Numbered from the stretch's first letter, positions 42,294 through 63,456 are shown. The stretch: DNA of 64,000 nt from Bacteroidota bacterium (GCA_947479085.1 CANJYB010000007.1:72432-136431), one strand, 5' to 3'. Notes: generated by a model not told the origin, from the sequence alone. A program made the numbers and translations.

Positions 42294-42295
42294 AT

Positions 42296-43700: not shown

Positions 43701-43729
43701 TCCACATTTATTAACCTTTAAAAAATCCT

Positions 43730-43758: not shown

Positions 43759-43839
43759 GCCAAAAAATGATGCTGCTTTTATGTAAGAGATAGCCCTATT
43801 AAGATATGAAGTACAATAAAGTTATATAAAATGGATAAA

Positions 43840-43960: not shown

Positions 43961-44543
43961 AAAAGGTGAAATATTAGGTTACCGTTCCTGGAAAGCAAAC
44001 CAAGATTCTTTTTAGGGACAAAATTGAGAGTTCTTAAAACTATGCAACCCATTAATATAAGTGAAATGGCAATTACTATAACTGATAATTATCTAATAAT
44101 AAGGATTAATTATGTAATAATCAGGAATAATTATGGCCTTACTTTTGCCATGTACTAAATAATAAAACAATTAAAAAAATAAAAATATGAGAGCTAAAAA
44201 AGTAATTCCGGCACAACAGGAAAACCTGTTGAAAAAAATAAAAGTAAGATTAGACTATAAAACAGTAGTCATTATTAACCGCATTGCATCTTTCGATACC
44301 TGGAAAAAATTATATCCGGAAGCGAAAATAATCAGTTAATACCAACTGCAAAATAAAGCCCTGCGGACAAGAGTTCGCAGGGTGGCTTTTGTAAAGATAC
44401 CGTTACATGGTAACTGTATCTAAATGGCTTGCCAAAATTGCGGGTGCACAGAATGCCTGCTTTAAACAATTATCCCCTTTATTTGTTTATTTTTGATAAA
44501 TTTGCCGCCCCTGAAAAAAGGCGCATAACTAATTTCTATTCAA

Positions 44544-44969
44544 TTGGAAAAACAATTAATAAATAACACTGAAACCCAAGTAAGGTTTAGTGAGGTGGAT
44601 GCGCTTGGGATAGTGTGGCACGGGCATTATGTAAAATTTATGGAAGATGGCCGGGAGGCTTTTGGTAAGCAGTTTGGCCTGGCTTACCTCGATGTTTACG
44701 GGCATGGGTTTGCCACCCCCATTGTTCACATGGCGCTTGATTATAAAAAGACAGTGAAATATGGCGATAGTGTAAGGATAGAAACCAGTTTTATCGATTC
44801 GCCTGCGGCAAAAATAATATTTAAGTACCGCATCTTTAGGCTAAGTGATGGGGAACTGGTGGCGGAAGCCGAAACGATACAGGTTTTTATTAATATGCAG
44901 CACGAGTTGTTTATTACCGTTCCGGAGTTTTTTGCGGAATGGAAAAGGAAAAATAAGTTAACAGAATAA
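44544..44969 (+). CDS. acyl-CoA thioesterase, 4-hydroxybenzoyl-CoA thioesterase/YbgC family (hotdog fold)
   Basis: 141 aa; …VRFSEVDALGIVWHGHYVKFMEDGREAF… is a hotdog thioesterase motif. First gene of the KS/ACP cluster. Confidence 0.75.
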   Translation: MEKQLINNTETQVRFSEVDALGIVWHGHYVKFMEDGREAFGKQFGLAYLDVYGHGFATPIVHMALDYKKTVKYGDSVRIETSFIDSPAAKIIFKYRIFRLSDGELVAEAETIQVFINMQHELFITVPEFFAEWKRKNKLTE

Positions 44970-45068
44970 GGGCCTCACCCCTTAAGCCCCTCTCCAAAGG
45001 AGAGAGGTAACAGGTGAGAAGAAAAGATATACTTTGTTTCAAAAAACAGTTAAGAATTTTAATAAAAA

Positions 45069-46229
45069 ATGAACGTTTATATAGCAGCAGATAACATCGT
45101 TTCGCCACTTGGGTTTACCAGTGACGAAAATTTTGAGCGGCTCAAACAAATGGAAACCGGTGTAAAGCTCATTTCGGGCTCCTCGCTTTCGGTGGAAGAT
45201 GTATTTGCAAGTGTGATAGACGATGAGCAGCTGGAAAAGGAGTTTCAGAAGCTTCATGCAGGGCAAGAATATACAAAGCTTGAAAAAATGGTGCTGCTTT
45301 CGGTAACGGATGCTCTGAAACAAAATAAAAACATTGACATTACCAGCTCCAAAACGTTGATTATACTTAGTACTACCAAGGGAAATATTGATTTGCTAGG
45401 CAAAGAGGAAGGAAACAGGTTTGATAAAAAAAGAGTGTACCTTTGGGAAACGGCAAATGTTATAGGGAAGTATTTTAACAACCCGAACCAGCCCGTGGTT
45501 ATTTCAAATGCCTGCGTATCGGGTGTGCTGGCCATAATTACCGGCAAAAGATTGTTGGAAGAAGGGAATTACGATACCATGGTGGTGGCCGGTGTGGATA
45601 TTATGACTCATTTTGTGGTGTCGGGGTTTCAATCGTTTAAGGCGGTGAGCAACGAGATTGCAAAACCTTACGATGCAAGCCGTAATGGCATTTCACTGGG
45701 AGAAGGTTGCGGTACAGTAATACTTACAAATGATAAGCAGAAGGTGGATAATCTGGAAATGAAAATAAAGGTTATGGGTGGAGCAAGTTCTAATGATGCC
45801 AACCATATTTCGGGACCATCACGAACAGGGGATGGATTATTACTAGCCATTGAAAAGACATTAAAGGATTCAGGAGTTACTGCTTCGGAAATAGATTACA
45901 TCTCGGGACATGGCACTGCTACCATTTTTAATGACGACATGGAATCGCTGGCAGTGACAGATGCAAAGTTGGCAGAAGTACCCATGAATAGTTTGAAAAG
46001 TTATTTCGGTCATACACTGGGTGCTGCAGGAGTAATAGAATCCATTGTGGGTATTCATTCGATGCGGAAAAGTATGCTGATAGGAACTTATAATTTTAAA
46101 GAGTTGGGAGTAACTGCTCCGATAAACATTATCAGGGATACAAAGGAGTTGGAAATAACTAATTGCCTTAAAACAGCTGCGGGATTTGGAGGATGCAATG
46201 CGGCTGTTTTGTTTCAGAAAGAAAATTGA
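45069..46229 (+). CDS. beta-ketoacyl-ACP synthase (KS) family protein
   Basis: 386 aa; active-site region …VISNACVSGV…; C-terminal …SGHGTAT…, …GHTLGAAG… are KAS motifs. Confidence 0.8.
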   Translation: MNVYIAADNIVSPLGFTSDENFERLKQMETGVKLISGSSLSVEDVFASVIDDEQLEKEFQKLHAGQEYTKLEKMVLLSVTDALKQNKNIDITSSKTLIILSTTKGNIDLLGKEEGNRFDKKRVYLWETANVIGKYFNNPNQPVVISNACVSGVLAIITGKRLLEEGNYDTMVVAGVDIMTHFVVSGFQSFKAVSNEIAKPYDASRNGISLGEGCGTVILTNDKQKVDNLEMKIKVMGGASSNDANHISGPSRTGDGLLLAIEKTLKDSGVTASEIDYISGHGTATIFNDDMESLAVTDAKLAEVPMNSLKSYFGHTLGAAGVIESIVGIHSMRKSMLIGTYNFKELGVTAPINIIRDTKELEITNCLKTAAGFGGCNAAVLFQKEN

Positions 46230-46889
46230 TTGAACGTAATGAACAATTATATAACTGCAGTTTGTGCAATTAAGAACGGAAAGGTGATGATCAATGATAA
46301 AGTTGATTTTACCAATAATGCTGCTGGGTCTGATGTTGATTTTTTAAAATCTGTTTACTTGCATTACCAGGTAAGTTATCCTAAGTTTTATAAAATGGAT
46401 AGCTTATGTAAACTGGCGATGGTGGCTTCGGAACTTTTAATAAAAACGAATAAAATAACAGAGAGGTATAAGTCGGAAGACATTGCAATTGTTATCGCCA
46501 ACAGTGGTTCGTCACTGGAAGTGGATACGGAACATCAAAAGGCTATTTCGGATAAAGTAAATTATTTTCCAAGCCCTGCAGTATTTGTTTATACCCTGCC
46601 AAATATACTGATTGGAGAGATTGCCATCAGAAATAAAATAAAAGGAGAAAATACTTTCTTTATTTTTGATAAATTTGATGCAGAATTTATGAGTTCGTAT
46701 GTCAATTCACTTTTGAACAGTAATAAAGAGGAATGCTGTATTACAGGTTGGGTGGAGTTTTATGACAACAATTACGAAGCTTTTTTAATAACAGTGGAGA
46801 AAAACAAGGAAGGGAATTTAAACATAACGAATACAAAGGAAGAATTAACTAAATTATATATAAACCAGGCTCAGCTTGCTGCTTCGTAA
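46230..46889 (+). CDS. KS N-terminal-like / chain-length-factor-like protein of aryl-polyene-type clusters
   Basis: 219 aa; start overlaps the previous stop (TGATTGAACGTAATG context). Weak KS-like N-terminal similarity; position conserved in APE/flexirubin clusters. Confidence 0.45.
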   Translation: MNVMNNYITAVCAIKNGKVMINDKVDFTNNAAGSDVDFLKSVYLHYQVSYPKFYKMDSLCKLAMVASELLIKTNKITERYKSEDIAIVIANSGSSLEVDTEHQKAISDKVNYFPSPAVFVYTLPNILIGEIAIRNKIKGENTFFIFDKFDAEFMSSYVNSLLNSNKEECCITGWVEFYDNNYEAFLITVEKNKEGNLNITNTKEELTKLYINQAQLAAS

Positions 46890-46921
46890 GAAGAGAAAGG
46901 GAAAGAGCTATTAAAACAGAA

Positions 46922-47179
46922 ATGATGACAGAATTAATGGACAAATTAAAAGGTGAAATTATTACCCAATTGAACCTGGAAGATTTAAAAAAAGAAGATA
47001 TCTCTGACGATTCTCCTTTATTTGGAGACGGGTTAGGATTGGATTCAATTGATGCTTTGGAATTAATAGTATTGCTCGAAAAAAACTACGGGATTAAAAT
47101 AGCCAACCCGGCAGATGGAAAGAAAATTTTCCAAACCATCCGCACCATGGCCGAATACATAGAAGCAAACAAAAAATAG
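46922..47179 (+). CDS. acyl carrier protein
   Basis: 85 aa; …LGLDSIDALELIVLLE… phosphopantetheine attachment (DSxD) motif. Confidence 0.85.
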   Translation: MMTELMDKLKGEIITQLNLEDLKKEDISDDSPLFGDGLGLDSIDALELIVLLEKNYGIKIANPADGKKIFQTIRTMAEYIEANKK

Positions 47180-47213
47180 TTTTTTGAACGAACGAATAAT
47201 TGGCAATTAATGA

Positions 47214-48431
47214 TTGACAATTAAAATGATGGATAAAAATATATACGTAACAGGTATTGGAATTATTTCAGCCATTGGAGACAATGTGGCCGAAACGCTT
47301 GATTCTGTGAGAAAACAAAAATCAGGTATCGGTTCATTGGATAATATTGAAACAAGGCATAAGAATGATATCCCGGTAGGAGAAGTAAAGCATACCAATG
47401 CAGAATTAAGTAAACTGCTTGGGTTTTCTCCTGAAACAAAAATTACCCGCACCACGCTATTAGGAATTGTGGCAGCTAAGGAAGCCATGGAAAGTGCCGG
47501 AATAAAAGATGTTAAGGAATTCAGAACCGGTTTAATTTCTGCCAATAGTGTAGGTGGTATGGCTATGACTGAGATGTATTATAAAGATTTTCTGAATCCT
47601 GAAAAGAAAGGAGATTTTGTTGATTATATTTTGAATCACGATTGTGGTGACAGTACAGAAGCGATTGCAAATGTATTGGGAATAAAAGATCATATCTCTA
47701 CCATCAGTACCGCCTGTTCATCTTCTGCCAATTCCATTATGCTTGGCGCAAGGTTGATTAAAAACAATATTGTGGACAGGGTGATAGTAGGTGGAACAGA
47801 TTCTTTATCCAAATTTACCATCAATGGATTTATGACATTGATGATACTTGACAAGGAAAAATGCAAACCATTTGACGCAGAGCGGAAAGGATTGAACCTG
47901 GGCGAAGGTGCAGGTTTTATAGTTCTGGAATCGGAAAAAGCAGCAGCGGGAAAAGAAATACTTTGCGAACTTTCAGGCTATGGCAATGCCAATGATGCCT
48001 ACCACCAAACTGCTTCTTCCCCTACAGGAGAAGGTGCTTATCTGGCAATGGAAAAAGCATTTAAAGTAAGCGGTTTAAAACCTGCTGATATTGATTATAT
48101 CAATGCACACGGCACGGGTACAGGTGTTAACGACTTATCCGAAGGAACAGCAATTGAAAGATTATTTGGAAATAAAGTACCTGCCATTAGTTCTACCAAA
48201 GCATTTACGGGGCATACGTTAGGTGCATGTGGAGGTATAGAAGCTGTTCTCTCCGTATTGGCCATAAAATATAATATGGTTTATCCTAATTTAAACTTGG
48301 TTCACCAGATGAGTGAATTAACATTTACTCCTGTTAAAGAGCTGAGCACAGATAAACCCATTAACCATGTTTTGTCCAATTCATTTGGTTTTGGGGGCAA
48401 TTCATCTGCATTAATTTTTTCACGACATTAA
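47214..48431 (+). CDS. beta-ketoacyl-ACP synthase II-like (FabF family)
   Basis: 405 aa; Cys active site …STISTACSSSANSI…; …NAHGTGTGVND…, …GHTLGACGG… His motifs. The true start may be the MMDKN… ATG about 12 nt downstream. Confidence 0.85.
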   Translation: MTIKMMDKNIYVTGIGIISAIGDNVAETLDSVRKQKSGIGSLDNIETRHKNDIPVGEVKHTNAELSKLLGFSPETKITRTTLLGIVAAKEAMESAGIKDVKEFRTGLISANSVGGMAMTEMYYKDFLNPEKKGDFVDYILNHDCGDSTEAIANVLGIKDHISTISTACSSSANSIMLGARLIKNNIVDRVIVGGTDSLSKFTINGFMTLMILDKEKCKPFDAERKGLNLGEGAGFIVLESEKAAAGKEILCELSGYGNANDAYHQTASSPTGEGAYLAMEKAFKVSGLKPADIDYINAHGTGTGVNDLSEGTAIERLFGNKVPAISSTKAFTGHTLGACGGIEAVLSVLAIKYNMVYPNLNLVHQMSELTFTPVKELSTDKPINHVLSNSFGFGGNSSALIFSRH

Positions 48432-48434
48432 TTT

Positions 48435-49499
48435 ATGGAGGCATACATAAGAGGAACCGGAATCGTTTCCCCGCAAAAAACATTTAATACACATGACTTT
48501 TTAACGGAACCGGTTGAATATACTACCAATTCGTTAAGATGCATTGAGCCTGTTTATACTGAATTCCTGAACCCTATACTCGCAAGGAGAATGGGCAGGA
48601 TAATTAAAATGGGAATAGCTGCCTCTTCCATCTGTCTTAAAGACGGTGGAGTGCCCATACCGGATGCTATAATTACTGGTACAGCATTGGGATGCCATGA
48701 GGATACCGAAAAATTTCTTTTGGCTATTATTGATAACGAGGAACAATTTCTTACCCCTACTTCGTTTATGCAGTCTACCCATAACACCGTAAGTTCGCAG
48801 ATTGCACTGCAACTGAAATGCATGAATTATAATTTCACTTATGTACATAAAGGATTTTCGTTTGAAAGTGCTTTATTGGATGGTATGATGATGTTGGAAG
48901 AAGCTGGTATACATAATGTGTTGATTGGCGGACATGATGAAATGACAGAGAAACATTTTAAGATTACCAGTCGCGTGGGCTATTGGAAAGAAGAAAATGT
49001 TCCTACTATGGAAATTATTAACAGTAAAACGGAAGGCAGTATATCAGGCGAAGGGGCTGGTTTCTTTTTATTAAGCAATCAAAAAAGTGAAACGGATTAT
49101 GCAAAGCTTCTTGCGGTAAAAATGATTTATCAGCCGGAAAACCAAAAGGATGTTCAATCAGAAATTATAGAATTATTAAAAGAGAAAAATCTTACTCCCG
49201 AAGACATTGATTGTGTAATGTATGGTATAAGCGGAGATGTAAGGTTTGATGATATTTATTACAATTTACAAAAGGCAGTTTTCGGTAACAGTACTTCGGT
49301 TTATTTTAAACATTTATCGGGGGAATACCAGACAGTAAGTAGTTTTGCAATGTGGGAAGCGGCTATGATTTTAAAAACACAGACTATTCCTGTATGCATT
49401 TTAATAGGTGAAAATAAAAAGAAGGAAATAAAGAATGTGCTTATTTACAATACCTATATGAATACCTATCATACGGTTTCCCTGCTTTCTAAATGTTAG
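48435..49499 (+). CDS. KS-like protein (second KS/CLF-type partner)
   Basis: 354 aa with KS fold similarity (…ITGTALGCHEDTEKF…) and no obvious Cys-His-His triad. Confidence 0.6.
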   Translation: MEAYIRGTGIVSPQKTFNTHDFLTEPVEYTTNSLRCIEPVYTEFLNPILARRMGRIIKMGIAASSICLKDGGVPIPDAIITGTALGCHEDTEKFLLAIIDNEEQFLTPTSFMQSTHNTVSSQIALQLKCMNYNFTYVHKGFSFESALLDGMMMLEEAGIHNVLIGGHDEMTEKHFKITSRVGYWKEENVPTMEIINSKTEGSISGEGAGFFLLSNQKSETDYAKLLAVKMIYQPENQKDVQSEIIELLKEKNLTPEDIDCVMYGISGDVRFDDIYYNLQKAVFGNSTSVYFKHLSGEYQTVSSFAMWEAAMILKTQTIPVCILIGENKKKEIKNVLIYNTYMNTYHTVSLLSKC

Positions 49500-49517
49500 G
49501 CCAATAACATTTCTTCA

Positions 49518-50288
49518 ATGACTTTTAAAAACACAAGCATTGCCTTTCTTATTTCAATAGGTCTGATATGTTTGTTCCATTTTCTTGCGGGTATCAGTTT
49601 ATGGTGGATGCTTGTTCCTTTTTTTATTTATAACGTTTTGCTTGTCATCGGTTCTGCGAACATACAATCAGATTTTCATATTAAGGCACTTTGTCATGGA
49701 GATACGAATAAGAAACAAATCGCAATAACTTTTGATGATGGCCCGAACAGAGAATACACTCCAAAAGTATTATCCCTGCTTGAACAATATGATGCAAAAG
49801 CCACCTTTTTTGTAATAGGGAAAAATATCATTGGGAACGAAGAAATACTAAAACGTATGGATGTTGCAGGGCATATAATAGGTAATCATACCTTTAGCCA
49901 TTCTTTTTTTATTGATTTTAAAAATGCAAACGGTTTTAAAGACGAGTTGAATGCAACTGCTGATTCAGTATTTAAGGTTACCGGAAAAAGAATGAAACTG
50001 TTTCGTCCTCCTTATGGTGTCACCACTCCTCATCTTGCAAGAGCGGCTAAAGAGTTAAATTACCAAGTAATTGGTTGGAATGTCCGTTCGCTGGATACTA
50101 CCAATGACAGTAAAGACAAAATAACATCCAGGGTACTTGAACAACTGAAACCGGGAGCTATTGTACTGTTTCATGATACTTCAGAGAAAACACTGAACGT
50201 TTTGAAACAAACACTTGAATCGGCAGGACAAAGTGGCTTCAAAATTGTAATGATGGACCAGTTATTAAGCACAACGAATTACGAATAA
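49518..50288 (+). CDS. polysaccharide deacetylase (NodB homology domain) with N-terminal TM anchor
   Basis: 256 aa; …ITFDDGPNREYTPKVL…ATFFVIGKN…HTFSH… NodB motifs. Confidence 0.8.
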   Translation: MTFKNTSIAFLISIGLICLFHFLAGISLWWMLVPFFIYNVLLVIGSANIQSDFHIKALCHGDTNKKQIAITFDDGPNREYTPKVLSLLEQYDAKATFFVIGKNIIGNEEILKRMDVAGHIIGNHTFSHSFFIDFKNANGFKDELNATADSVFKVTGKRMKLFRPPYGVTTPHLARAAKELNYQVIGWNVRSLDTTNDSKDKITSRVLEQLKPGAIVLFHDTSEKTLNVLKQTLESAGQSGFKIVMMDQLLSTTNYE

Positions 50289-50316
50289 AATCGTTTACAA
50301 AATAGATTATTACAAA

Positions 50317-50952
50317 ATGAAAAAACAGTTTCTCTTATTAGCTTTAATGATTCCATTCGTTTTATTTGCGCAGGTGCCAAAAGGTTTTACCTCAGTAAAA
50401 GATACCTTAGCTTTTAAACAAAAAATGGAAACCCAATCGAAACTGGTCAATTCCATTGAAAGCGATTTCACACAAGAAAAGTATTTAAGTGTTATGTCCG
50501 AAAACATTGTTAGTAAAGGACATTTTTATTTTAAAAAGGTAAACATGCTTCGCTGGGAATACAATAATCCATACAAGTATTTGATTGCTATTAACAAAGA
50601 CAAGATGTATATTAAAGACAATGGAAAAGTCAGCAAATACGATATTAACTCCAATAAGATGTTTAAGAGCATTAACGAAATGATGGTGAATACGGTGCAA
50701 GGCAATTTATTAAACAACAAAGATTATAAGGCAAAGTATTATGAAAATGATAAACAATATTTACTGGAACTTTCGCCCTTGCAGAAAGGAGCAAAGGATT
50801 TCCTGAAAGTTATCCAGTTGTATATTGACAAGTCAGATTATTCAGTTATAAAGGTTAAGATGATAGAGCCCAGCGATGATTATACAAGCATAGATTTTAT
50901 CAACCGGAAAAATAATCAGCCCATAAGTGATGAAACATTTATTATTAAGTAG
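50317..50952 (+). CDS. LolA-like outer-membrane lipoprotein carrier protein
   Basis: 211 aa with signal peptide; LolA-like size and position as in aryl-polyene clusters. Confidence 0.6.
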   Translation: MKKQFLLLALMIPFVLFAQVPKGFTSVKDTLAFKQKMETQSKLVNSIESDFTQEKYLSVMSENIVSKGHFYFKKVNMLRWEYNNPYKYLIAINKDKMYIKDNGKVSKYDINSNKMFKSINEMMVNTVQGNLLNNKDYKAKYYENDKQYLLELSPLQKGAKDFLKVIQLYIDKSDYSVIKVKMIEPSDDYTSIDFINRKNNQPISDETFIIK

Positions 50953-51559
50953 CCTATTAGTTTTACTTCTTGGTGGCTGTACTCTTTGTCATTACGACCG
51001 ATTGAAGGAAGTAGTTTCTAATTCTCCGGCTCCTAAACCAATTTTTGGTGACAATTTTAATTCCTTTCTTTTTAAAACAAATATTTCTATTTATGGTAAA
51101 GAGGTGAGTGGATTGCTGGTAACCAAACAAATGGCACCTGCGGATTACCGGGTTATTTTCACTACTGAATTAGGTTTGAAATTATTTGACTTCGAATTTA
51201 AAGATACCTCCTTTACCCTTCATTATTGTGTTCCCCAGTTTAACCGACCTAAATTATTGAAGACCATACAACAGGATATTGAAATATTACTGATGAGTAA
51301 CCTGGATGGGAAACCATTGAAAAATATGGAAGATAAAAAGGGCTTGTTTACTGTTCAGCAGATTAAAATGGGAAATTTTCAGAATTATTATTTTACCGAA
51401 AAAGCAAGTCATCATATCGTTAAAATTGAACATTCAAAAAAGCGGGCTGTTAAAGTACTGATGGAACTAAGCGAATACAAAGACGATTTTCCTAATAAGG
51501 TTTTTATTCTACACAGCGATATTAATTTGCATATAGAATTACATTTACTTAAGAAATAA
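50927..51559 (+). CDS. hypothetical lipoprotein, possibly LolB-like (DUF3261-type)
   Basis: 210 aa; lipobox LLGGCTLC; overlaps the LolA-like gene by 26 nt. Confidence 0.45.
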   Translation: MMKHLLLSSLLVLLLGGCTLCHYDRLKEVVSNSPAPKPIFGDNFNSFLFKTNISIYGKEVSGLLVTKQMAPADYRVIFTTELGLKLFDFEFKDTSFTLHYCVPQFNRPKLLKTIQQDIEILLMSNLDGKPLKNMEDKKGLFTVQQIKMGNFQNYYFTEKASHHIVKIEHSKKRAVKVLMELSEYKDDFPNKVFILHSDINLHIELHLLKK

Positions 51560-51685
51560 GGAAGTTCCGAACCATTATTTGTTATCGTTGGGTTAATTAA
51601 CATTACCTTTGAAAGAATTGAAATAGTAAAAAGACTTCGTTTTTCTTATCATTCCTTTTTTTCCTCATCTTCATAATCTATATTT

Positions 51686-52117
51686 ATGCAAAAAGTTTCA
51701 GATCAAACCAATAAAATAAATGCGCCCGAATCTGTCTATTTATATATTAAACTATCTCAGTTGCCTTTTTCAGGTAATGGACTACATACTGCTATCGATA
51801 TTTACAGGGAAGAAATTATTTCTGTTTTTAAAGGTGAAAAGTTAACTGCTCATCAGGCTGCATTAAGGGCAAAGAAAGGAAACGACAAGTACTTTATTAA
51901 AATGATGGATGGAAGCATTTTTGATTCGATGAAAGTAAAGTGTTTTGCAAAGTATGCCAATGATGCCGGAGGCTTTGCGGGTGCCGATTTTAAAAACAAT
52001 GCTAAAATTGCATTGGATGATGATAACAATGTAGCTATTGTGGCTACCCGGAAAATAAAAACAGGAGAAGAAATTTTTTGTAGCTATGGAAGAAAATACT
52101 GGGTAAAACATGGATAA
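51686..52117 (+). CDS. SET-domain protein (putative protein-lysine methyltransferase), paralog 1
   Basis: 143 aa; …GNGLHTAIDIYREEIISVFKGEK…, …KYANDAGG…, …ATRKIKTGEEIFCSYGRKYW… match the SET core and post-SET-like tail. Confidence 0.7.
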   Translation: MQKVSDQTNKINAPESVYLYIKLSQLPFSGNGLHTAIDIYREEIISVFKGEKLTAHQAALRAKKGNDKYFIKMMDGSIFDSMKVKCFAKYANDAGGFAGADFKNNAKIALDDDNNVAIVATRKIKTGEEIFCSYGRKYWVKHG

Positions 52118-52219
52118 GATTTTCAGATTAAAACTTCGCAAATATTATATATAGAAATCACTACTAACCGAATAAAAAAAGGTGTTTGGGCTAAAGCCCT
52201 TATTGGGTATGGTTTCATT

Positions 52220-52243
52220 AACCCCAGCCTTAAGGCTGGGGTT
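52220..52243. repeat. perfect GC-rich palindrome AACCCCAGCC-ttaa-GGCTGGGGTT
   Basis: Seen directly in an intergenic region. Confidence 0.6.
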
Positions 52244-52378
52244 ACTAAATAAAACTGCCTCCATTTCAGGACTTTAGTCCCCTTAGTTAAAATATATTTC
52301 TATAGTTTGTCCAATTTTGAAAGTTCAATCGTTATAACGGTATAAATCAAATCGTATTAACCTTTAAATTCTAAAAAA

Positions 52379-52753
52379 ATGACAACAACAAGTAAAACAA
52401 TGACTACTCAGGAAGTCGCAAACAGATTAGTGGAAATGTGCCGTAAAGGCCAGATTCTTGAAGCACAACAGGAACTTTTTTCGGAAGATGTAACAAGTAC
52501 AGAACCCGTTTACTCTCCATTTCCGGCTGCCACAGGAAAAACAGCAGTTTTGGAAAAAGGAAAACAATTTGCTGCAATGATTGAGGTAAATCACAGTACT
52601 TATTTTTCTGACCCGATTGTAGGTAGAAATTTCTTCAGTATCGTTTGCATACTGGATGCCACTATGAAAGGGCAGGGGAGGATGAAAATGGAAGAAATTT
52701 GTGTGTTCGGTGTAAAAGACGGACAGGTTTGTTCTGAGCAGTTTTTCTATTAA
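52379..52753 (+). CDS. NTF2-like/SnoaL-like family protein
   Basis: 124 aa; small alpha+beta barrel pattern. Assignment is tentative. Confidence 0.5.
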   Translation: MTTTSKTMTTQEVANRLVEMCRKGQILEAQQELFSEDVTSTEPVYSPFPAATGKTAVLEKGKQFAAMIEVNHSTYFSDPIVGRNFFSIVCILDATMKGQGRMKMEEICVFGVKDGQVCSEQFFY

Positions 52754-52775
52754 TTTTATTTAATAGAAAAGATAA

Positions 52776-52810
52776 AAAACTCCTTATATAACTATATAAG
52801 GAGTTTTTTT
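52776..52810. terminator. bidirectional rho-independent terminator
   Basis: AAAAAACTCCTTATATAacTATATAAGGAGTTTTTTTAT. Confidence 0.75.
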
Positions 52811-52868
52811 ATACTTCTCAAAAAATTCGTCTTTAATATTCTCAATAATTTAAACCTGTTTTTATAAT

Positions 52869-53756
52869 TTATTTTCTGAGGTATCTTTTTTTTGCAATTT
52901 CGGACGGAGGAACTATACCCGAATATTTATTTGCAAACGCTGCTGTAAATTCGGCCCCGAAAAACATAATCATGGAGGAATACGAAACCCAGAGAAGGAT
53001 TAAAATAATGGACCCTGCAGCACCATAAGTGGAAGCCGGCTGAGCCTTGCCAAAATAAAACGCAAGTGCTGTTTTGCCAAGGGTAAACAAAATGCCTGTA
53101 ACCAATCCACCTAACCATACATGCTTCCATTTTATTTTGGCATCCGGCAAAAACTTAAACATTATTGCAAAGAGAACGGATATAATGGCTAAGGAAAATA
53201 CAATATTAAGAATGTTATAAATAAAAGATAATATTCCTGAATCATCGCTGTTGACAAGGTTCCCCATGGCAGCTATGGCAGTTGAAACGACCAATGATAC
53301 CAACAGCAGGAAGGCAATGGCGAGGATTAACCCAAATGAAAACAGGCGGGCTTTTAGTACCGGCCAGATTCCTTTTTGAGGTACTACTTTTACTTTCCAG
53401 ATGATGTTTAATGTTTTTTGCAATTCCACAAATACCCCTGTGGCACCTACCAGTAATACAATCCCGCCAATTATAGAACCCAGCACAGTAGATTTGGAAT
53501 GATTAAGATTTTCCAGTATTTCTTTTATTTGTTTACCTGTGGCTTCGCCTAATGTTTTTGATACTTCAGTTATTATATTACTATTTACAGTCTCATTTCC
53601 AAAAAAGAACCCAGTGACAGAAATAATAAGCACCAATAAACCCGGGATACTGAATATAGCATAATAAGCAATAACAGCACTTTGCCTGAACGGGTCTTTT
53701 TCATTCCATTCTTTGTAAGCTGATTTAAAAAGGCTACCTATTTCTTTAATTTTCAC
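52869..53756 (-). CDS. YihY/BrkB (virulence factor BrkB / RNase BN-like) family membrane protein
   Basis: 295 aa; …FRQSAVIAYYAIFSIPGLLVL… N-terminus typical of YihY; 6 TM segments. Confidence 0.85.
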   Translation of the reverse strand: MKIKEIGSLFKSAYKEWNEKDPFRQSAVIAYYAIFSIPGLLVLIISVTGFFFGNETVNSNIITEVSKTLGEATGKQIKEILENLNHSKSTVLGSIIGGIVLLVGATGVFVELQKTLNIIWKVKVVPQKGIWPVLKARLFSFGLILAIAFLLLVSLVVSTAIAAMGNLVNSDDSGILSFIYNILNIVFSLAIISVLFAIMFKFLPDAKIKWKHVWLGGLVTGILFTLGKTALAFYFGKAQPASTYGAAGSIILILLWVSYSSMIMFFGAEFTAAFANKYSGIVPPSEIAKKRYLRK

Positions 53757-53893
53757 ACCTCAAAATTCCAATTTTATGAGGGATTAATTATTGTAAAATT
53801 TTTAGTTAATGTTACATTATTAATGCTTTTACACTTAGTTAAATTAGAACATAACATCAGTGTGCTAATATCAAGGCACATGTTGAATCAGCG

Positions 53894-54328
53894 GTGGTTT
53901 TAGTATATTTGCCGAATTATAAAATGGCATTAATTATAAAAAAATCACGGTTACCGGGTGCCGGTAAGGGGTTATATACCACCAAAGCTATAGGTAAAGA
54001 TAGTAAAATTATTGAATACCGGGGAGAAATCATTGGGTATAACGAGTACCGCAAGCGTACTAGAAACGAACAGGACCATTACCTGTTCTTTGTAAGGATG
54101 GATAGGAGCATTGACGCTTTGCATACCCCTCAATATAAAGCACGCTATGCAAACGATGCGGCAGGAATTACCCGACTGAAAGGTGTTAAAAACAACAGCG
54201 ATTACATTATATACGGTGACAAGTGTTTTATTGTGGCTTCGCGCGATATAAAAGCAGGGGAAGAAATTTTTGTAAACTATACTAGCTCTTACTGGAGCTA
54301 TATGCGGAAACGCACGAAGAAAAAATAA
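53894..54328 (+). CDS. SET-domain protein, paralog 2
   Basis: 144 aa; …SRLPGAGKGLYTTKAIGKDSKIIEYRGEII…, …RYANDAAG…, …ASRDIKAGEEIFVNYTSSYW…. The start may be the internal ATG (MALIIKK…) at about 53924. Confidence 0.7.
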   Translation: MVLVYLPNYKMALIIKKSRLPGAGKGLYTTKAIGKDSKIIEYRGEIIGYNEYRKRTRNEQDHYLFFVRMDRSIDALHTPQYKARYANDAAGITRLKGVKNNSDYIIYGDKCFIVASRDIKAGEEIFVNYTSSYWSYMRKRTKKK

Positions 54329-58101: not shown

Positions 58102-59121
58102 TTATTTAATAATTACTAATTTATCTGTTTTTATTTTATTACCATCTATATTTATTTCATAAAAATAGATGCCAGCATCTAGTTGACTTGCGTTTATAGT
58201 TGAATTGTTAGCAGAGCCATTAAAACTATTAGAGTCAATTAGTTTACCAGTTACATCAAAAATAGTAAGAACTCCGTTTTGATGTTCCCCTATGTTGTAT
58301 TCCAGCACCATATTCCCATTACTTGGGTTTGGATATAATTTCAAATCAACTTTATTACCTAATTCCCCTACCCCTAAACCGGTGCAATCCACCACACTTA
58401 TATCATCAAAGTAGAAACCCGCACCTAATTGAGCGCCTCCTCCTACGTTTTGTTTTATTGTATTTACATCATTTCTAAAATTACCAATGGTAATAAACCT
58501 TTCTCCTCCTAATGCTAAAAAACTACCGGATATTAATGTCCAGTTGTTTTTATCTGTTATTATATTTGTATCAGGGTTTTCCACCTGTGGTATTACTTGT
58601 ATGGGGGCAAAAGTAGAACTTGAATAGAGTAAACTATCTGTTGAAAAATAGGCACCAAGACTACTTGACCCATACTGGCAAGAATCAAAAAGTGAAACAT
58701 AATAGGTAACGCAATAAGTGTGCCCTGCTATTAGTGGGATTGTTAATGAATCTTCAATATATTCCCTTCTATTGGGTTCAAGATAGGTATAAATGCCAAC
58801 ATAAGCGTTTCCTGTTCTAGGTACTTGGGCTCCGCTGTATGTGTTAGCAGGTACACTAACAAGACCATAAGGTGCACATTGGTTGTAATAATCCGAACTT
58901 GTATAGTTTATTCCGTTAATATAATTCGGTTGAAACCAAGGCGGAGCTAACCATAGACAACCAGGACCTACAGGGCAACTTGTGAAATTTTCAAAACTAC
59001 TATTTGGAACAAGGTTTTGTCCTAATGCAGATGACATTATACTAGATAAAATTGCAAATACAAATATTAATTTTTTCATTTTTTTTAGTGTAAAAAAAGA
59101 ACCCCTTTTGCTTTTTTGCAA
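58102..59121 (-). CDS. T9SS-secreted hypothetical protein, paralog B-prime (T9SS type-A CTD)
   Basis: 339 aa (true start probably MKKLIFVFAILSS at about 59079). Shares …NLVPNSSFENFT(S/T)CP…APPWFQPN…EYIE…C(V)…YVSL…LISG(S/N)F…GGE(R/K)F(I/M)TIGNF… with the gene at 59667..60662. CTD: …LKLYPNPSNGNMVLEY…AGIYFYEINIDGNKIKTDKLVIIK. Confidence 0.75.
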   Translation of the reverse strand: MQKSKRGSFFTLKKMKKLIFVFAILSSIMSSALGQNLVPNSSFENFTSCPVGPGCLWLAPPWFQPNYINGINYTSSDYYNQCAPYGLVSVPANTYSGAQVPRTGNAYVGIYTYLEPNRREYIEDSLTIPLIAGHTYCVTYYVSLFDSCQYGSSSLGAYFSTDSLLYSSSTFAPIQVIPQVENPDTNIITDKNNWTLISGSFLALGGERFITIGNFRNDVNTIKQNVGGGAQLGAGFYFDDISVVDCTGLGVGELGNKVDLKLYPNPSNGNMVLEYNIGEHQNGVLTIFDVTGKLIDSNSFNGSANNSTINASQLDAGIYFYEINIDGNKIKTDKLVIIK

Positions 59122-59137
59122 AAGGGTTTCTTTTTTG
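59094..59137. terminator. terminator hairpin between paralogs
   Basis: GAACCCCTTTTGCttttttGCAAAAGGGTTTCTTTTTTG; a related copy lies at 60644..60686. Confidence 0.7.
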
Positions 59138-59138
59138 A

Positions 59139-59663
59139 TTATTTAATAATTACTAATTTATCTGTTTTTATTTTACCGCCATCTATTTTTATTTCATAAA
59201 AATATACACCAGCATCTAATTGGGTTGCATCTATGGTTTCGTGAGATACGGCACCATTAAAACTATGTGAACTAATTATTTTGCCTGTGATATCAAAAAT
59301 AGTAAGCACGCCATTTTGATGTTCTCCAATACTTTTTTCTAATATAAAATTACCATTATTAGGATTTGGATATAGCTTTACATTATTAGACGAAGCAGTT
59401 GAAATCGAATTGCCATGATGCACCAAACTCTTTCCCATTTCCAAGCAATAGTCATCAAAACTTACTCGCTCGCCTATAATATCGAAATACATCATTCTGG
59501 CTTGCCACACTATGCTTCCGCCTTCGTTTTGGCATTGGCTGGCTATGGAATAGATGGCTGAAGAATCGCCAGCTGTATATTGATAACCTGGGTTATTTTG
59601 CTGTAGCAGGTAATAGTAGTTTACCAACTTTTCGTTGGCTTGAATTTGGTTGCTGGCAGCCAT
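59139..59663 (-). CDS. chimeric gene fragment: C-terminal linker region of the 922 aa beta-helix protein joined to a paralog-B-prime-type T9SS CTD
   Basis: 174 aa. Residues about 1-85 are near-identical to residues about 745-830 of the 922 aa protein (…ASNQIQANEKLVNYYYLLQQNNPGYQYTAGDSSAIYSIASQCQ…WQARMMYFDIIGERVSFDDYCLE…). The CTD matches that of 58102..59121 (…IGEHQNGVLTIFD(I/V)TGK…DAG(V/I)YFYEI(K/N)IDG.KIKTDKLVIIK). Nucleotide identity to 61040..61210 is about 90% or higher. Confidence 0.45.
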   Translation of the reverse strand: MAASNQIQANEKLVNYYYLLQQNNPGYQYTAGDSSAIYSIASQCQNEGGSIVWQARMMYFDIIGERVSFDDYCLEMGKSLVHHGNSISTASSNNVKLYPNPNNGNFILEKSIGEHQNGVLTIFDITGKIISSHSFNGAVSHETIDATQLDAGVYFYEIKIDGGKIKTDKLVIIK

Positions 59664-59666
59664 TTA

Positions 59667-60662
59667 TTATTGTACTACAACCTTTTTATTTAGTATCCCG
59701 TTTTCAGTATTTACTTTTATAAAGTAAATTCCCTTTGCCTCTTTACTTATATCTATAATTATACTAGTGCCAGTAACTTGTTGCATCTTTATTTCTTCCC
59801 CCAGCATATTAAAAACAGCAACACTTTTTATTTTTTCTTTTCTGCTTTTTACTTCAAAAACCCCTTCGCTTGGGTTTGGGTAAACACTTATGTTCATATT
59901 TTCTGTTACTTCATTTACACCGTCATTGGTGCAATCCACAACACTTACATCATCTATGTAATAATATGCGCCATCTGTCATTGTTCCAAACGCGTTCTGC
60001 ATATTAGTAGTTGCTGGAGTATGAAAATTACCTATAGTCATATATTTTTCTCCTCCTGTTGCTATAAAATTTCCGGATACCAACATCCAGTTGGTGGTAT
60101 CATTAAGCATATTGTTTGATGAATTTTCTATTTGAGGAGTATAATTACTTAACGCATAAAACTGCGAAGTGGTTTGAATAACACTATCTACAGAGAAGTA
60201 AGCACCCATATTGCTTATTGCATAAAGCGAAGTGCCTGCTAACGAAACATAAAACTCCACACAATATTTTCTATTGGCTATCAGTGTATCTAATAAAGGC
60301 ACTTCTATGTATTCTCTAACATTATTAGTATCTATGCTACCACAGATTCCGGAATACCCATTGCCAGTTTTTGCATTTTGATACCCTTCAATATTTAAAG
60401 GAACTCCTACCCACGCGGCACTAGCACAAGTATTATATAGGTCGGAGCTGGAATTATTAATTCCATTAAAAAAATTGGGCTGAAACCAAGGCGGTGCTAA
60501 ATAAATTTGAATTGGGTAAGTTGGACAAGTAGTAAAATTTTCAAACGAATTATTTGGGACTATATTTTGAGACTGAGAGTATGTAATAAGAAATAAGAAA
60601 TAAGTAACAAACAAGGCTTTTTTCATGCTAATTGGATTTAAATAAAAGAAACCCTTTTGCAA
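59667..60662 (-). CDS. T9SS-secreted hypothetical protein, paralog B (T9SS type-A CTD)
   Basis: 331 aa (likely start MKKALFVTYF at about 60626). CTD …ISVYPNPSEGVFEV…GIYFIKVNTENGILNKKVVVQ. Confidence 0.75.
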   Translation of the reverse strand: MQKGFFYLNPISMKKALFVTYFLFLITYSQSQNIVPNNSFENFTTCPTYPIQIYLAPPWFQPNFFNGINNSSSDLYNTCASAAWVGVPLNIEGYQNAKTGNGYSGICGSIDTNNVREYIEVPLLDTLIANRKYCVEFYVSLAGTSLYAISNMGAYFSVDSVIQTTSQFYALSNYTPQIENSSNNMLNDTTNWMLVSGNFIATGGEKYMTIGNFHTPATTNMQNAFGTMTDGAYYYIDDVSVVDCTNDGVNEVTENMNISVYPNPSEGVFEVKSRKEKIKSVAVFNMLGEEIKMQQVTGTSIIIDISKEAKGIYFIKVNTENGILNKKVVVQ

Positions 60663-60686
60663 AAAAGCAAAAGGGTTTCTTTTATT
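60644..60686. terminator. terminator hairpin
   Basis: AAAAGAAACCCTTTTGCaaaaaaGCAAAAGGGTTTCTTTTATT. Confidence 0.7.
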
Positions 60687-60687
60687 A

Positions 60688-63456
60688 TTATTTAATAATT
60701 ACTAGTTTGTCATTCTTTACTTTTGTGTTATTAATCAACACATCGTATAAATAAATACCTGCTTCCATAGCATCAGCATCTATTGATGCACTGGCATTGC
60801 TGGCATTTAATGTGTAATTTTTAATTAGTTTTCCGGCAATATCATAAATGGCGATACTTCCGGTTTCATTATCTTCTAAATGATACTCTAAAGTAAAATT
60901 ACCATTATTAGGGTTTGGATATAGTCTTACATTATTGCTTTGTTTAGGAGCACTTGTATTGGTATTATGCACCATACTTTTTCCCTCCTCCAAACAATAA
61001 TCATCGAAACTTACCCTCTCACCAATAATGTCAAAATACATCATTCTTGCCTGCCATACCACATTGCCCCCTTGGCTTTGGCATTGGCTGGCTATGGAAT
61101 AGATAGCTGAAGAATCACCAGCTGTATATTGATAACCTGGGTTGTTTTGCTGTAGCAGGTAATAATAGTTTACCAACTTTTCGTTGGCTTGTATTTGGTT
61201 ACTGGCAGTTACACTGTTATTAGTAACATCGGCTGTGGCATAGTCTTTTGCAGCTATGGCATTTCCTACTTCTTTTAGTTGCCCCATGGTGGTATATTTT
61301 GCACTGTCGTAATAGCTCTGCAAGACTCCCGAAGTATCGTCTGCCACTGCACCATTGGTGCTATCAAGTACGCTATATGCCACTGCTTTGTTTTGGTATT
61401 GCAGTTCAGATGTAAATTGTTGGTAGTTAGTGGTATCATTAGCCAACGGTATCAATTCTCTGGCAGCCAGTATATCGCCATTGCCTCCGCCTCCGGCAAC
61501 TATTGCCTGAACCGCTATATTATTACAGTCATAATATGTACCTAATGCAGCTTGCAAACCAGCACCATAAGTGTTAACAGCAACAGGGCTCCAATTTAAA
61601 GTAGGAAATGTAATATATCCACCAGTAGGGGTATTGTCTAAAAACAAAACAGAAGCCGTATTAGCATTGTTAGTTACATTATCCACATACGTTTCCTTGG
61701 TAAACCCGTTACCAGCAGAAGTATTCCACAATAAATCTATTGGGTGGGTAGCATCGCCTTGCTGCCCCAGCACAAAACCACTACGCAACGCCAACCCATG
61801 TTGCCCTTGGCTCATGGTGTTGTTGAGAATAAAATTAAAGCCAACAGCGTTATTACTAAAGGTCATGCTTTCGCCCAGCCCTGTAATGGTATTACATTCA
61901 ATAGAAGACTTTGTACTTGCATTATCCCATATTCCGTGGTACCAAGGAGTAACATTTGCCGGATATGTTCCCGTATGCCCGGTAAGTACTGTGTTATCAG
62001 TAGAGCTTATGGTATTGTTAAGCACCCTTGGTTTAAAACAGTTTTGTATTTCTATTCCGCTACCTGTGGTAGTTCCCGCCACAGTGGAATGAACCACCTC
62101 CAAGTTTAGGTTGTCGTATATGGTTAAACCTAAATAGACATTTGTGGCTACTATACAAGTAAAACATTTAGTAATCGTATTGCCCCTTACCTTGTATTTA
62201 TCAGTTGCCATTCCAACAACGGTTTGAAGCGGATCTGACAAATCAATCCCAAACTTACAATACCCCACACCATTGGCTTGAGAGGTGGTAATGGTATTGC
62301 CATCCACTTTTATATCAGTAGCATCAAGCCCGGTAGTGTTTCTTTTAATATTAATACCGGTGGAATAGTTGGTAATACCATTATTAAAAACTTCGGTAGT
62401 GCTTGCATCGGCAGGCCACACGCTAATACCCAATACTCCTGTGTTAAGTGTAGTTGCTTTTATGCGAAGAGTATTGTTATACACAAACACAGATCTGTAA
62501 AAACGAATGTCAATGGCTTTCCAGGTTTCAGAAAATCCATTGCCTTGGTTTAGCCCAGCACCTCCTATGGTTAAAGTATATGCTGCAGTATTTACGCCTT
62601 GTGCAAATATACCAATTGGACTTGTTAGCCCAATCGCTGCATTCAAGGGTTGATTAAGGAACTGGTTATTATAGACAACCACACTGGAAGCATTAATATT
62701 AATACCTTTATTCATGTTGTCAAAGGTATTCAAAAATCCTGCACTTCCGTCATCGCCTATTTGAACTCCTCCAATGGAATTAATTTTAATACCTATAAGA
62801 GAAACAGTTCCTCCGGAGTTCAAAAGGCCCGATGGCAATAAACCAGCCACAATATCAGCCTTTACGTTTGTAGAACTAAATGTAGCATCTAAGCCAAATG
62901 TGGCATTAAAATAAGAAGCAGGCATTGTTCTGCTTGTAAAGACAGTATTCCTTATGTTGTTTGTTGGCACTATAGAGCCTGTGGTGCTAAGAAACGAGAT
63001 ACTTGTACTGTTTCTGTTAAACACCACATTATCTATATTGTAATTACCTTTACCAAGCGTAACTGCAGTAGTAGCGTCTTCTATCAGCGAATTCCCATTT
63101 ATTATTAACGGAGCTGGCAGCGTACCTTGGTTTATTCCAATCCACATACTGGGACTGCAACTAAAAATGTGAGTACGATTAGTGATTGTTAAACTGGTAG
63201 TTGGTCCGGTTAATAAGGTAATGGATGCGGTGGCGTCCATTTTAATATTACAGTTGTCAAATGTAACGGGAGCGTTAATAGTTATAGGTCCTCCTATAAA
63301 CAAGTCCTGTCCGGTATAGATTCCACCTGCAAATGCGCCAGCTGGCACAAAAGTAAAGGGAGCGATTAAGCACCCTGTTTGCGCTTTCATCTTTCCGCTC
63401 AAGCCAAAAAATATACAGGCGAGCAGAATAATTGTTTTTAAATTTATTTTTTTCAT
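60688..63456 (-). CDS. large right-handed parallel beta-helix (pectin-lyase-fold-like) surface protein with T9SS type-A CTD
   Basis: 922 aa with signal peptide MKKINLKTIILLACIFFGLSG and many degenerate N/T/G-rich beta-helix turns (…NNTISSTDNTVLTGHTG…, …NNGITNYSTGINI…). The C-terminus (…VRLYPNPNNGNFTLEY…GIYLYDVLINNTKVKNDKLVIIK) is a T9SS CTD. Confidence 0.8.
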   Translation of the reverse strand: MKKINLKTIILLACIFFGLSGKMKAQTGCLIAPFTFVPAGAFAGGIYTGQDLFIGGPITINAPVTFDNCNIKMDATASITLLTGPTTSLTITNRTHIFSCSPSMWIGINQGTLPAPLIINGNSLIEDATTAVTLGKGNYNIDNVVFNRNSTSISFLSTTGSIVPTNNIRNTVFTSRTMPASYFNATFGLDATFSSTNVKADIVAGLLPSGLLNSGGTVSLIGIKINSIGGVQIGDDGSAGFLNTFDNMNKGININASSVVVYNNQFLNQPLNAAIGLTSPIGIFAQGVNTAAYTLTIGGAGLNQGNGFSETWKAIDIRFYRSVFVYNNTLRIKATTLNTGVLGISVWPADASTTEVFNNGITNYSTGINIKRNTTGLDATDIKVDGNTITTSQANGVGYCKFGIDLSDPLQTVVGMATDKYKVRGNTITKCFTCIVATNVYLGLTIYDNLNLEVVHSTVAGTTTGSGIEIQNCFKPRVLNNTISSTDNTVLTGHTGTYPANVTPWYHGIWDNASTKSSIECNTITGLGESMTFSNNAVGFNFILNNTMSQGQHGLALRSGFVLGQQGDATHPIDLLWNTSAGNGFTKETYVDNVTNNANTASVLFLDNTPTGGYITFPTLNWSPVAVNTYGAGLQAALGTYYDCNNIAVQAIVAGGGGNGDILAARELIPLANDTTNYQQFTSELQYQNKAVAYSVLDSTNGAVADDTSGVLQSYYDSAKYTTMGQLKEVGNAIAAKDYATADVTNNSVTASNQIQANEKLVNYYYLLQQNNPGYQYTAGDSSAIYSIASQCQSQGGNVVWQARMMYFDIIGERVSFDDYCLEEGKSMVHNTNTSAPKQSNNVRLYPNPNNGNFTLEYHLEDNETGSIAIYDIAGKLIKNYTLNASNASASIDADAMEAGIYLYDVLINNTKVKNDKLVIIK

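Follow-up and report, generated by a model that had tools for sequence, protein, structure and literature searches.

Two minimal SET-domain genes close together in a Bacteroidota genome appear to represent two deep lineages of a large bacterial and phage subfamily

Introduction

What do two small SET-domain proteins do in a Bacteroidota genome, and does the closeness of their genes mean that they act together? The question is posed by a stretch of 64,000 nucleotides (CANJYB010000007.1:72432-136431) from Bacteroidota bacterium GCA_947479085.1, hereafter the window, in which a prediction made from the sequence alone had singled out two such genes within 2.6 kb, here designated SET1 and SET2. We consider it probable that SET1 and SET2 are separately transcribed genes for cytoplasmic lysine methyltransferases, each protein predicted to be a bare SET domain and each gene coming from its own deep lineage, and that their pairing is accidental.

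Two single-domain SET proteins

Both open reading frames (ORFs) are present where the original prediction had placed them. Compared with the Pfam hidden Markov model (HMM) for the SET domain, PF00856, whose gathering score is 22.4 bits, SET1 scores 38.4 bits across model positions 1-105 of 105, and SET2 scores 49.7 bits across positions 1-104 of 105, so the assignment of both to this family is upheld. The length of 143 residues given for SET1 is also correct; that of 144 residues given for SET2 almost certainly is not. The mechanical ORF of SET2 reaches upstream to a GTG at 53894 (53894-54328, 144 residues). The homologs, most of them 132 to 145 residues long, span 92-93% of the 144-residue form, all 24 of those aligned begin with MAL, and a gene caller run on the source contig returned a protein of 134 residues. 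Homolog starts, coverage, and gene-caller length together point, almost certainly, to the ATG at 53924 and a 134-residue protein. BLASTP aligns SET1 with SET2 at 39% identity over 124 residues (E = 3e-19), in keeping with the 35-40% first reported, and a global alignment gives about 34%. The gap between the two genes is 1.8 kb. Their features are listed here, with A1 and A2 denoting the alignments of the SET1 and SET2 families.

51686-52117, plus strand: SET1 ORF, a 143-residue single-domain SET protein (Pfam SET at residues 30-135)
51773-51781, plus strand: SET1 motif I, G30-N-G32, the GxG that binds S-adenosylmethionine (AdoMet); invariant in both families and aligned with the GxG of EZH2
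51884-51892, plus strand: SET1 D67-K-Y69; D67 and Y69 invariant, Y69 falling on the Tyr of DKYMCSF in EZH2 (profile alignment to 4mi5_A)
51950-51967, plus strand: SET1 motif III, K89-Y-A-N92-D93-A94; A88, K89, A91, N92, and D93 invariant in A1
52064-52102, plus strand: SET1 motif IV and C-terminal flank, G127-EEIFCSY134-GRK-Y138-W139; E129, C132, Y134, G135, Y138, and W139 invariant
53924-54328, plus strand: SET2, a 134-residue single-domain SET protein with a polybasic C-terminal tail (start from homologs and gene caller)
53963-53971, plus strand: SET2 motif I, G14-K-G16; invariant in A2
54143-54160, plus strand: SET2 motif III, R74-Y-A-N77-D78-A79; K72 to A79 invariant in A2, aligned with RYINHA of Chaetomium EZH2
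54257-54295, plus strand: SET2 motif IV and C-terminal flank, G112-EEIFVNY119-TSS-Y123-W124; E113, E114, V117, Y119, T120, Y123, and W124 invariant
54296-54325, plus strand: SET2 polybasic tail, SYMRKRTKKK; M127, K129, and R130 invariant in A2

Members of the SET1 family conserve an N-terminal I..E..YL motif and end in a short C-terminal tail of 4 residues; alignment A1 has 35 invariant columns. Tails in the SET2 family are always rich in Lys and Arg, with a median length of 15 residues and a net charge of +3 to +9 (median +7), and the isoelectric point of these proteins is 9.7-10.3 throughout. The motif IV segment of SET2 has 73% nucleotide identity to its SET1 counterpart and is the only notable direct repeat of the region.

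Catalytic residues and predicted mechanism

A joint profile of the two families matches 127 distinct solved SET-domain sequences in the PDB. The best matches are to EZH2 from Chaetomium (1.5e-14) and human (8e-13), followed by KMT2C/D and NSD1-3, and the best bacterial match in the PDB is Legionella LegAS4 (2e-8). Aligned to human EZH2, D(K/H)Y places its invariant Tyr on that of DKYMCSF, a lysine-channel Tyr matched in SET1 by Y69; (K/R)YANDA falls on RFANHS, and GEEIFxxY on GEELFFDY. Motif III of SET1 thus occupies the canonical RFINHS position, with the Asn retained and Asp in place of His, and it aligns as well with YINFS of LegAS4. Motif IV of SET1, which holds the catalytic Tyr, aligns with GEEITISYGDDYW of the viral enzyme vSET in addition to the EZH2 segment, and the YW that follows it replaces a post-SET region.

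Conservation within the two families is consistent with this picture. In the joint comparison of 28 sequences, 24 positions are identical in all 28, among them GxG, the channel Tyr, A-x-Y-A-N-D-A, NN, E-x-F-x-x-Y, and YW. The signatures named in the original prediction are therefore present and invariant in both families, and the Asn and Tyr residues on whose conservation it had laid weight are retained. The motif III Asn (N92 in SET1, N77 in SET2) is invariant and aligns with the Asn of RFANHS. The canonical His that should follow it is absent from both families, in which Asp (D93, D78) is found instead, and the pair N-D occurs in 107 of 108 sequences in an alignment of small proteins (106 top representatives of suitable length, with SET1 and SET2 added). 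Judged from these alignments, Asp for His is a signature of the subfamily and no bar to SET membership. Two residues ahead of the catalytic Tyr lies the position known in SET8, DIM-5, G9a, and MLL1 as the "Phe/Tyr switch". It is an invariant Cys in the SET1 family and an invariant Val in the SET2 family, which suggests a pocket roomy enough for multiple methylation, and product or substrate specificities that may differ between SET1 and SET2.

AlphaFold models, built for each protein from 25-sequence family alignments, reached predicted local distance difference test (pLDDT) values of 44.7 and 52.8, values that are probably low because the alignments are shallow and their members over-similar. 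When the better model, that of SET1, was submitted to Foldseek, all 50 matches listed were SET domains, with weak template modeling (TM) scores of 0.37-0.47.

SET1 and SET2 are each most likely an AdoMet-dependent protein-lysine methyltransferase. By inference from established SET-domain chemistry, AdoMet would sit on one face of the domain, in contact with the GxG loop and with the Asn of motif III and the Tyr of motif IV. From the opposite face the substrate lysine would come in along a narrow channel whose walls are formed by the D(K/H)Y Tyr, the EEIFxxY Tyr, and the C-terminal YW, and the methyl group would then pass directly onto the lysine amine.

A large subfamily and two deep lineages

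The original prediction had stated that SET proteins are uncommon in bacteria and that two standalone paralogs in a free-living-type Bacteroidota are notable. Family counts support neither statement. The SET1 family comprises 877 clusters at 90% identity, with top matches to SET1 at 62-73% identity, and the SET2 family comprises 685, with top matches at 78-92%. Named members of both come from Flavobacterium, Sphingobacteriaceae, Bacteroidia, and similar taxa, one close SET2 relative comes from Verrucomicrobiota, and the usual annotation is "SET domain-containing protein-lysine N-methyltransferase". The two exact peptide motifs of SET1 occur in 431 species-representative genomes, those of the cultured F. 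swingsii and F. cheniae among them. A search with the joint profile against 1.84 billion representatives of 50% identity clusters recovers 10,335 relatives with E <= 1e-3, of which 1,490 reach E <= 1e-10 and 41 reach E <= 1e-30; their length is mostly 120-170 residues, and among the small sequences listed from the 108, nearly all end in YG..YW. By 2014, reviews had already counted SET genes in over 500 bacterial genomes, those of free-living species included (PMC10117894, PMC3980110). On SET proteins of Flavobacterium or of bacteriophages, our own search of the available literature turned up nothing relevant. By sequence, SET1 and SET2 belong to a huge, uncharacterized minimal-SET subfamily of bacteria and phages, recognizable by (K/R)YANDA, with its Asp for the canonical His, and GEEIFxxYGxxYW.

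Within this subfamily the two proteins are far apart. In a neighbor-joining tree of 106 sequences, the common ancestor of SET1 and SET2 spans 101 leaves; ranked by tree distance, SET2 is 64th of 105 from SET1, and SET1 is 92nd from SET2. The breadth of that ancestor and the rank of 64 argue against a recent duplication and agree with the old divergence proposed originally. SET1 and SET2 thus appear as two deep, separately inherited lineages that are neither sister clades nor products of local duplication. Two side observations concern copies at other loci. One metagenome contig (L105, 10007-10900) has two tandem genes of the SET2 family, 76% and 65% identical to the SET2 of the window, the only tandem SET pair in 153 loci. 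Another (L028, 7104-7238) has a 45-residue SET1-like fragment, 56% identical and probably a pseudogene remnant, 2.8 kb upstream of an intact SET1 ortholog.

Both genes are compositionally native to their genome: GC content, GC content at third codon positions (GC3), and codon usage lie within 2 standard deviations of the 52 genes of the window. Neither family was found on plasmids, save for distant Burkholderia megaplasmid genes at 31-35% identity. A mobile island was considered and rejected, given the native composition and the absence of bracketing repeats, of any tRNA in the window, and of close plasmid-borne relatives. As a yardstick of conservation we used PntB, encoded in the same window and searched in the same database, whose best relatives are 87-93% identical, barely above those of SET2 and far above those of SET1. 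By this measure SET2 appears conserved almost like a core enzyme, and SET1 appears to evolve faster. A typical Bacteroidota SET1 ortholog (63% identity) also occurs in a metagenome-assembled genome labeled as the gammaproteobacterium Hydrocarboniphaga daqingensis (L038), probably a binning or labeling error in the public record.

Gene neighborhood

The original prediction placed the two genes at the end of a ketosynthase (KS) and acyl carrier protein (ACP) cluster and around an NTF2-like gene and a YihY/BrkB membrane protein gene, all of which is borne out. The surroundings are as follows.

about 41700-51559, plus strand: flexirubin-type pigment cluster, ending 126 bp before SET1
51604-51611, plus strand: candidate Bacteroidota -7 box TACCTTTG, 75 nt 5' of the SET1 ATG in the 126-bp gap (weak pattern match)
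52379-52753, plus strand: SnoaL_5 (NTF2-like) gene, Pfam 131.2 bits, a neighbor only
52774-52809: bidirectional terminator hairpin, 17-bp perfect, between the SnoaL_5 and YihY genes
52869-53756, minus strand: YihY/BrkB membrane protein gene, Pfam Virul_fac_BrkB 170.8 bits and TIGR00765 90.1 bits, a neighbor only
53904-53911, plus strand: candidate -7 box TATATTTG, 13 nt 5' of the SET2 ATG at 53924 and within the GTG-started ORF (weak pattern match)

The KS/ACP cluster is identified as a flexirubin cluster because its last gene scores 146.8 bits with the NCBIfam equivalog model LolB2_flexi, for which the cutoff is 60. Its content comprises a thioesterase, two full ketosynthases, an ACP, a KS-like protein, a polysaccharide deacetylase, a LolA-like protein, and LolB2_flexi. 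Between SET1 and SET2 stand the YihY gene, in the opposite orientation, and a strong terminator acting in both directions, which predict separate transcription units for the two. The position of TATATTTG agrees with the 134-residue start of SET2. Both -7 box assignments are weak suggestions, since 103 copies of the motif occur in the window against 99.5 expected, which is no enrichment; a sigma-70 promoter scan was similarly uninformative, with 15 sites found and 11.8 expected.

We compared the flanks of 80 SET1 loci, taken up to 10 kb, and those of 73 SET2 loci. None of the 80 SET1 loci has SET2, flexirubin genes, SnoaL_5, or YihY within that distance, and the commonest SET1 neighbor recurs in just 10 of them. 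A link between SET1 and flexirubin biosynthesis was rejected on the count of none in 80. SET1 is likewise absent from all 73 SET2 loci, as are SnoaL_5 and YihY. Elsewhere, SET2 shows partial synteny: 20 of about 44 loci have, directly upstream of it, the ATP-binding cassette (ABC) ATPase gene of an uptake operon of the iron/cobalamin type, and 12 of about 46 have the peptidyl-tRNA hydrolase gene (pth) directly downstream; both the uptake operon and pth are absent at the locus studied here. Relatives of SET2 at 89-92% identity (L184, L187, and a contig of ERZ1426547) occupy two other, unrelated contexts, so that the flanks of SET2 are unusually fluid even among these relatives. One context has DnaJ and a class I methyltransferase with a flavin adenine dinucleotide (FAD) monooxygenase; the other has a tail-specific protease, to which L187 adds a downstream DNA N6/N4 methyltransferase and a GmrSD nuclease.

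The proximity of SET1 and SET2 is real in this genome, recurs in no other locus examined, and is specific to this species-level lineage. Their closeness, and the place of SET1 after the flexirubin cluster, look like accidents of local gene order; a functional reading of the pairing or of the position by the pigment cluster is not supported, since neither arrangement is conserved in any other genome examined.

The 261-nt spacer between SET1 and SnoaL_5 (52118-52378) drew attention in its own right. It folds at -59.8 kcal/mol, compared with -43.0 +/- 4.7 kcal/mol for shuffled sequences (z = -3.6), and none of 200 shuffles was as stable. Its nested hairpins include an 18-nt inverted repeat at 52214-52249, and the spacer is single-copy in the window. 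A search of Rfam returned nothing at the gathering score (best E = 0.14). The spacer may represent a terminator joined to a leader, a small RNA, or the relic of an element.

SET1-like genes in phages

Genes 42-58% identical to SET1 occur on 17 viral contigs of IMG/VR (L167-L183), of up to 191 kb, and a further copy lies on a deposited 642-kb uncultured phage (LR756502.1, 208335-208736). The viral contigs that we inspected have a GC content of 26-31%. A clamp loader gene adjoins the SET1-like gene in one contig, terminase and polymerase exonuclease genes are near it in another, and a third has phage-like neighbors, one of which matches a PHROGs endonuclease family. No relative of SET2 was found on viral contigs. 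In a tree that includes phage sequences, all 100 of 100 bootstraps group the phage copies with the SET1 side and not with that of SET2, and these copies branch basally to bacterial SET1; monophyly of bacterial SET1 is recovered in just 58 of 100, so that transfer may have gone in either direction. PHROGs has no match for SET1, SET2, or the phage SET copies, and the PADLOC defense models match none of SET1, SET2, SnoaL_5, and YihY.

Two features of the viral contigs may be added. One (L167) encodes a 266-residue SET1-like version with a C-terminal extension of about 120 residues. In five others (L168, L169, L172, L177, L182), many otherwise unrelated proteins, the SET-like one included, have almost identical N-termini of the form M(R/K)(Y/H)(L/I)K.(F/Y)E.F.

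Site of action and candidate substrates

Neither protein has a hydrophobic N-terminus, the maximal hydropathy over 12 residues, for segments starting in the first 25, being 0.88 in SET1 and 0.43 in SET2. The Pfam scan found SET as the sole domain in both proteins and no type IX sorting domain; at least six other proteins of the window carry Por_Secre_tail or CHU_C sorting domains. These negatives bear on Sec and type IX export, since signals of the type III and type IV systems are not legible in the sequence. With secretion signals missing and both families conserved across environmental Bacteroidota, the cell's own proteins are the most likely substrates, and we infer that SET1 and SET2 are cytoplasmic lysine methyltransferases.

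The invariant polybasic tail of SET2, together with its conservation near the level of a core enzyme, invites a tentative guess, which we hold as possible but not as the likelier outcome: its substrate may be abundant and nucleic acid-associated, for example a protein of the nucleoid or the ribosome. There is precedent for SET enzymes that modify their own cell's proteins, since cpnSET methylates chlamydial Hc1 and the archaeal Go1-SET methylates MC1-alpha (PMC10117894).

The organism itself is an uncultured member of Bacteroidia, a placement to which the homologs of PntB lead, and the window comes from a metagenome contig of 186.6 kb. Besides a GH92 and a cobalamin riboswitch, the window contains many genes for type IX secretion cargo. 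Cargo genes with Por_Secre_tail or CHU_C C-terminal domains are unusually dense at 1835-3610, 22979-24334, 26425-29994, 38830-41616, and 58102-63456, the last of these, at 58.1-63.5 kb, being a run of four on the minus strand. Located upstream of a gene for a TonB-dependent receptor (12293-14221, minus strand), probably one for B12 uptake, the riboswitch (14329-14640, minus strand) scores 60 bits, the gathering score being 31.5.

Alternative explanations

Several points weigh against regarding SET1 and SET2 as cytoplasmic lysine methyltransferases paired by accident. Mutation of the motif III His inactivates some canonical SET enzymes, DIM-5 among them, so activity cannot be assumed where Asp replaces it. 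The pseudoknot fold and the geometry of the pocket are read from sequence-profile alignment and from the weak Foldseek matches, and the catalytic role of every member of the subfamily is a prediction from sequence. The polybasic tail of SET2 also resembles a eukaryotic nuclear-localization signal. By our own estimate, moreover, in a genome of some few Mb the chance that two given genes fall no more than 2.6 kb apart is about 1 in 1,000, which leaves some room for a lineage-specific functional reason for their closeness, though one that no finding favors.

Four other explanations were considered. If the change from His to Asp abolished catalysis, the proteins would be binding modules, for instance readers of basic protein tails or of nucleic acid. 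The loss of His from both families and from nearly all of the small sequences is what such a view would expect, and the PDB profile searches found no close solved structure to set beside a catalysis that is itself predicted. Yet neither family varies at any of the remaining catalytic or AdoMet-contacting positions, from GxG and the channel Tyr to the Asn of motif III, the Tyr of motif IV, and YW, a conservation hard to account for without catalysis, and the equally invariant Asp looks more like an alternative kept by selection than like decay. LegAS4, also called RomA, has likewise lost the His, with Phe at that position (YINFS), and is reported to be an active enzyme (PMC10117894). We regard inactive proteins as unlikely. 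A role outside the cell is an improbable reading as well: one or both proteins would be exported "nucleomodulins" that methylate histones of protist grazers, algae, or animals, after the manner of NUE, RomA/LegAS4, BtSET, and BaSET, with the Lys/Arg tail of SET2 as the nuclear-localization signal. Host-specific effectors usually evolve fast and occur patchily, and a housekeeping role fits better with families that are found in hundreds of environmental Bacteroidota and, for SET2, conserved so strongly. Both proteins lack a signal peptide and the C-terminal sorting domain of the type IX system, the evident secretion route of the window. The best NCBIfam match of the pair, a weak one, is indeed to the effector model for LegAS4/AnkI, but the scores of 34.2 bits for SET1 and 26.7 for SET2 stand against an equivalog cutoff of 550. 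Export would gain from the likeness of the invariant SET2 tail, RKRxKKK, to a classical monopartite nuclear-localization signal, from one source that labels a SET2-family member "nuclear protein", and from the fact that the well-studied bacterial SET proteins are all host-directed, save cpnSET acting on Hc1 (PMC10117894).

For SET1 there is also the view that it is a domesticated phage gene, or part of a phage-host conflict, in a lineage that moves between Bacteroidota and phages, and that it would modify phage or defense proteins instead of a housekeeping substrate. The SET1-like genes on 17 viral contigs and the 642-kb phage, the clamp loader and terminase neighbors there, the firm and basal placement of phage copies on the SET1 side of the tree, and the faster evolution of SET1 relative to SET2 all lend this some weight. 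With bacterial monophyly at 58 of 100, however, transfer may have gone in either direction, and the SET1 of the window is native in composition, has no prophage genes nearby, and, as noted, matches nothing in PADLOC or PHROGs; its motifs occur in 431 species genomes, in chromosomal contexts that are variable yet ordinary. A phage role for this SET1 therefore seems to us rather unlikely. The remaining explanation makes a module of the locus: SET1 and SET2 would cooperate, or act with SnoaL_5, YihY, or the flexirubin cluster, with a common substrate or an enzyme of biosynthesis as the target of methylation, for instance, and their closeness would have been selected. A spacing of 1.8 kb is improbable by chance in any one genome, at about 1 in 1,000, and SET1 begins on the same strand just 126 bp past the last flexirubin gene. 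The comparison of loci nevertheless has largely refuted this reading already: partner and neighbors recur in none of the 80 SET1 and none of the 73 SET2 loci, SET1 has no conserved neighbor, the partners of SET2 elsewhere are missing here, its relatives at 89-92% identity sit in other contexts, and an opposite-strand gene and a strong terminator come between the two. We rate a selected module as very improbable.

Significance

In themselves, SET1 and SET2 are routine, already-annotated SET-domain genes in what looks like accidental adjacency and have little significance as such. Their value lies in the very large bare-SET subfamily to which they lead, with more than 1,400 representative clusters at E <= 1e-10, uncharacterized and with an invariant Asp for His; the conservation of SET2 near the level of a core metabolic enzyme and the sharing of SET1 with phages are two further points of note. 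The identities of the substrates would show whether bacteria that are not pathogens use SET lysine methylation on their nucleoid or translation machinery, and why phages carry a SET enzyme.

A broader view, speculative and in our judgment doubtful, is that the (K/R)YANDA...YGxxYW proteins constitute a large housekeeping system of lysine methylation in Bacteroidota and neighboring phyla, in which SET2 marks a nucleoid or ribosomal protein and the SET1 branch is exchanged with phages. If this were true, the mark made by SET2 would be a bacterial counterpart of chromatin marking, and phages, huge ones included, would use the SET1 branch to modify host or virion proteins during infection.

Comparison with known systems

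SET1 and SET2 share with EZH2, KMT2C/D, NSD1-3, and SETD8 the same four motifs and the same positions of the catalytic Tyr residues, with PDB matches from 1.5e-14 to 1e-8. They differ from these eukaryotic SET cores in sequence (about 20-25% identity), in standing alone, and in having NDA where the eukaryotic proteins have NH(S/A). Eukaryotic SET enzymes need flanking domains or partner subunits.

In architecture the nearest characterized analog is vSET, the A612L protein of Paramecium bursaria chlorella virus 1. Of the minimal SET enzymes it has been studied most thoroughly, and the sequence used for comparison is identical to PDB 1N3J. Like the two proteins of the window (134 and 143 residues), vSET is a bare SET domain, of 119 residues, without pre-SET or post-SET zinc modules, and it shares the C-terminal GEEIxxSYGxxYW. 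Unlike them, it retains NHS in place of NDA and has neither the N-terminal motif of SET1 nor the basic tail of SET2; identity is about 26%, and hhalign gives a probability of 67% with E = 5e-5. This enzyme of a eukaryotic virus methylates histone H3 at K27 (PMC10117894).

With LegAS4/RomA (PDB 5CZY and 8SR6; NCBIfam NF043024), SET1 and SET2 have in common the missing motif III His and the order of the motifs. LegAS4/RomA is a protein of about 450-550 residues with ankyrin repeats that is secreted by a type IV system into host nuclei, whereas SET1 and SET2 have no additional domains and come from an environmental member of Bacteroidia.

Two other small prokaryotic SET enzymes, cpnSET/NUE of Chlamydia and Go1-SET of Methanosarcina mazei, are likened to SET1 and SET2 by description. 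NUE is also a type III-secreted effector, and we know of no Hc1 or MC1 homolog in Bacteroidota. By analogy, the action of Go1-SET and cpnSET on the DNA-packaging proteins of their own cells is the functional model that we favor for SET2.

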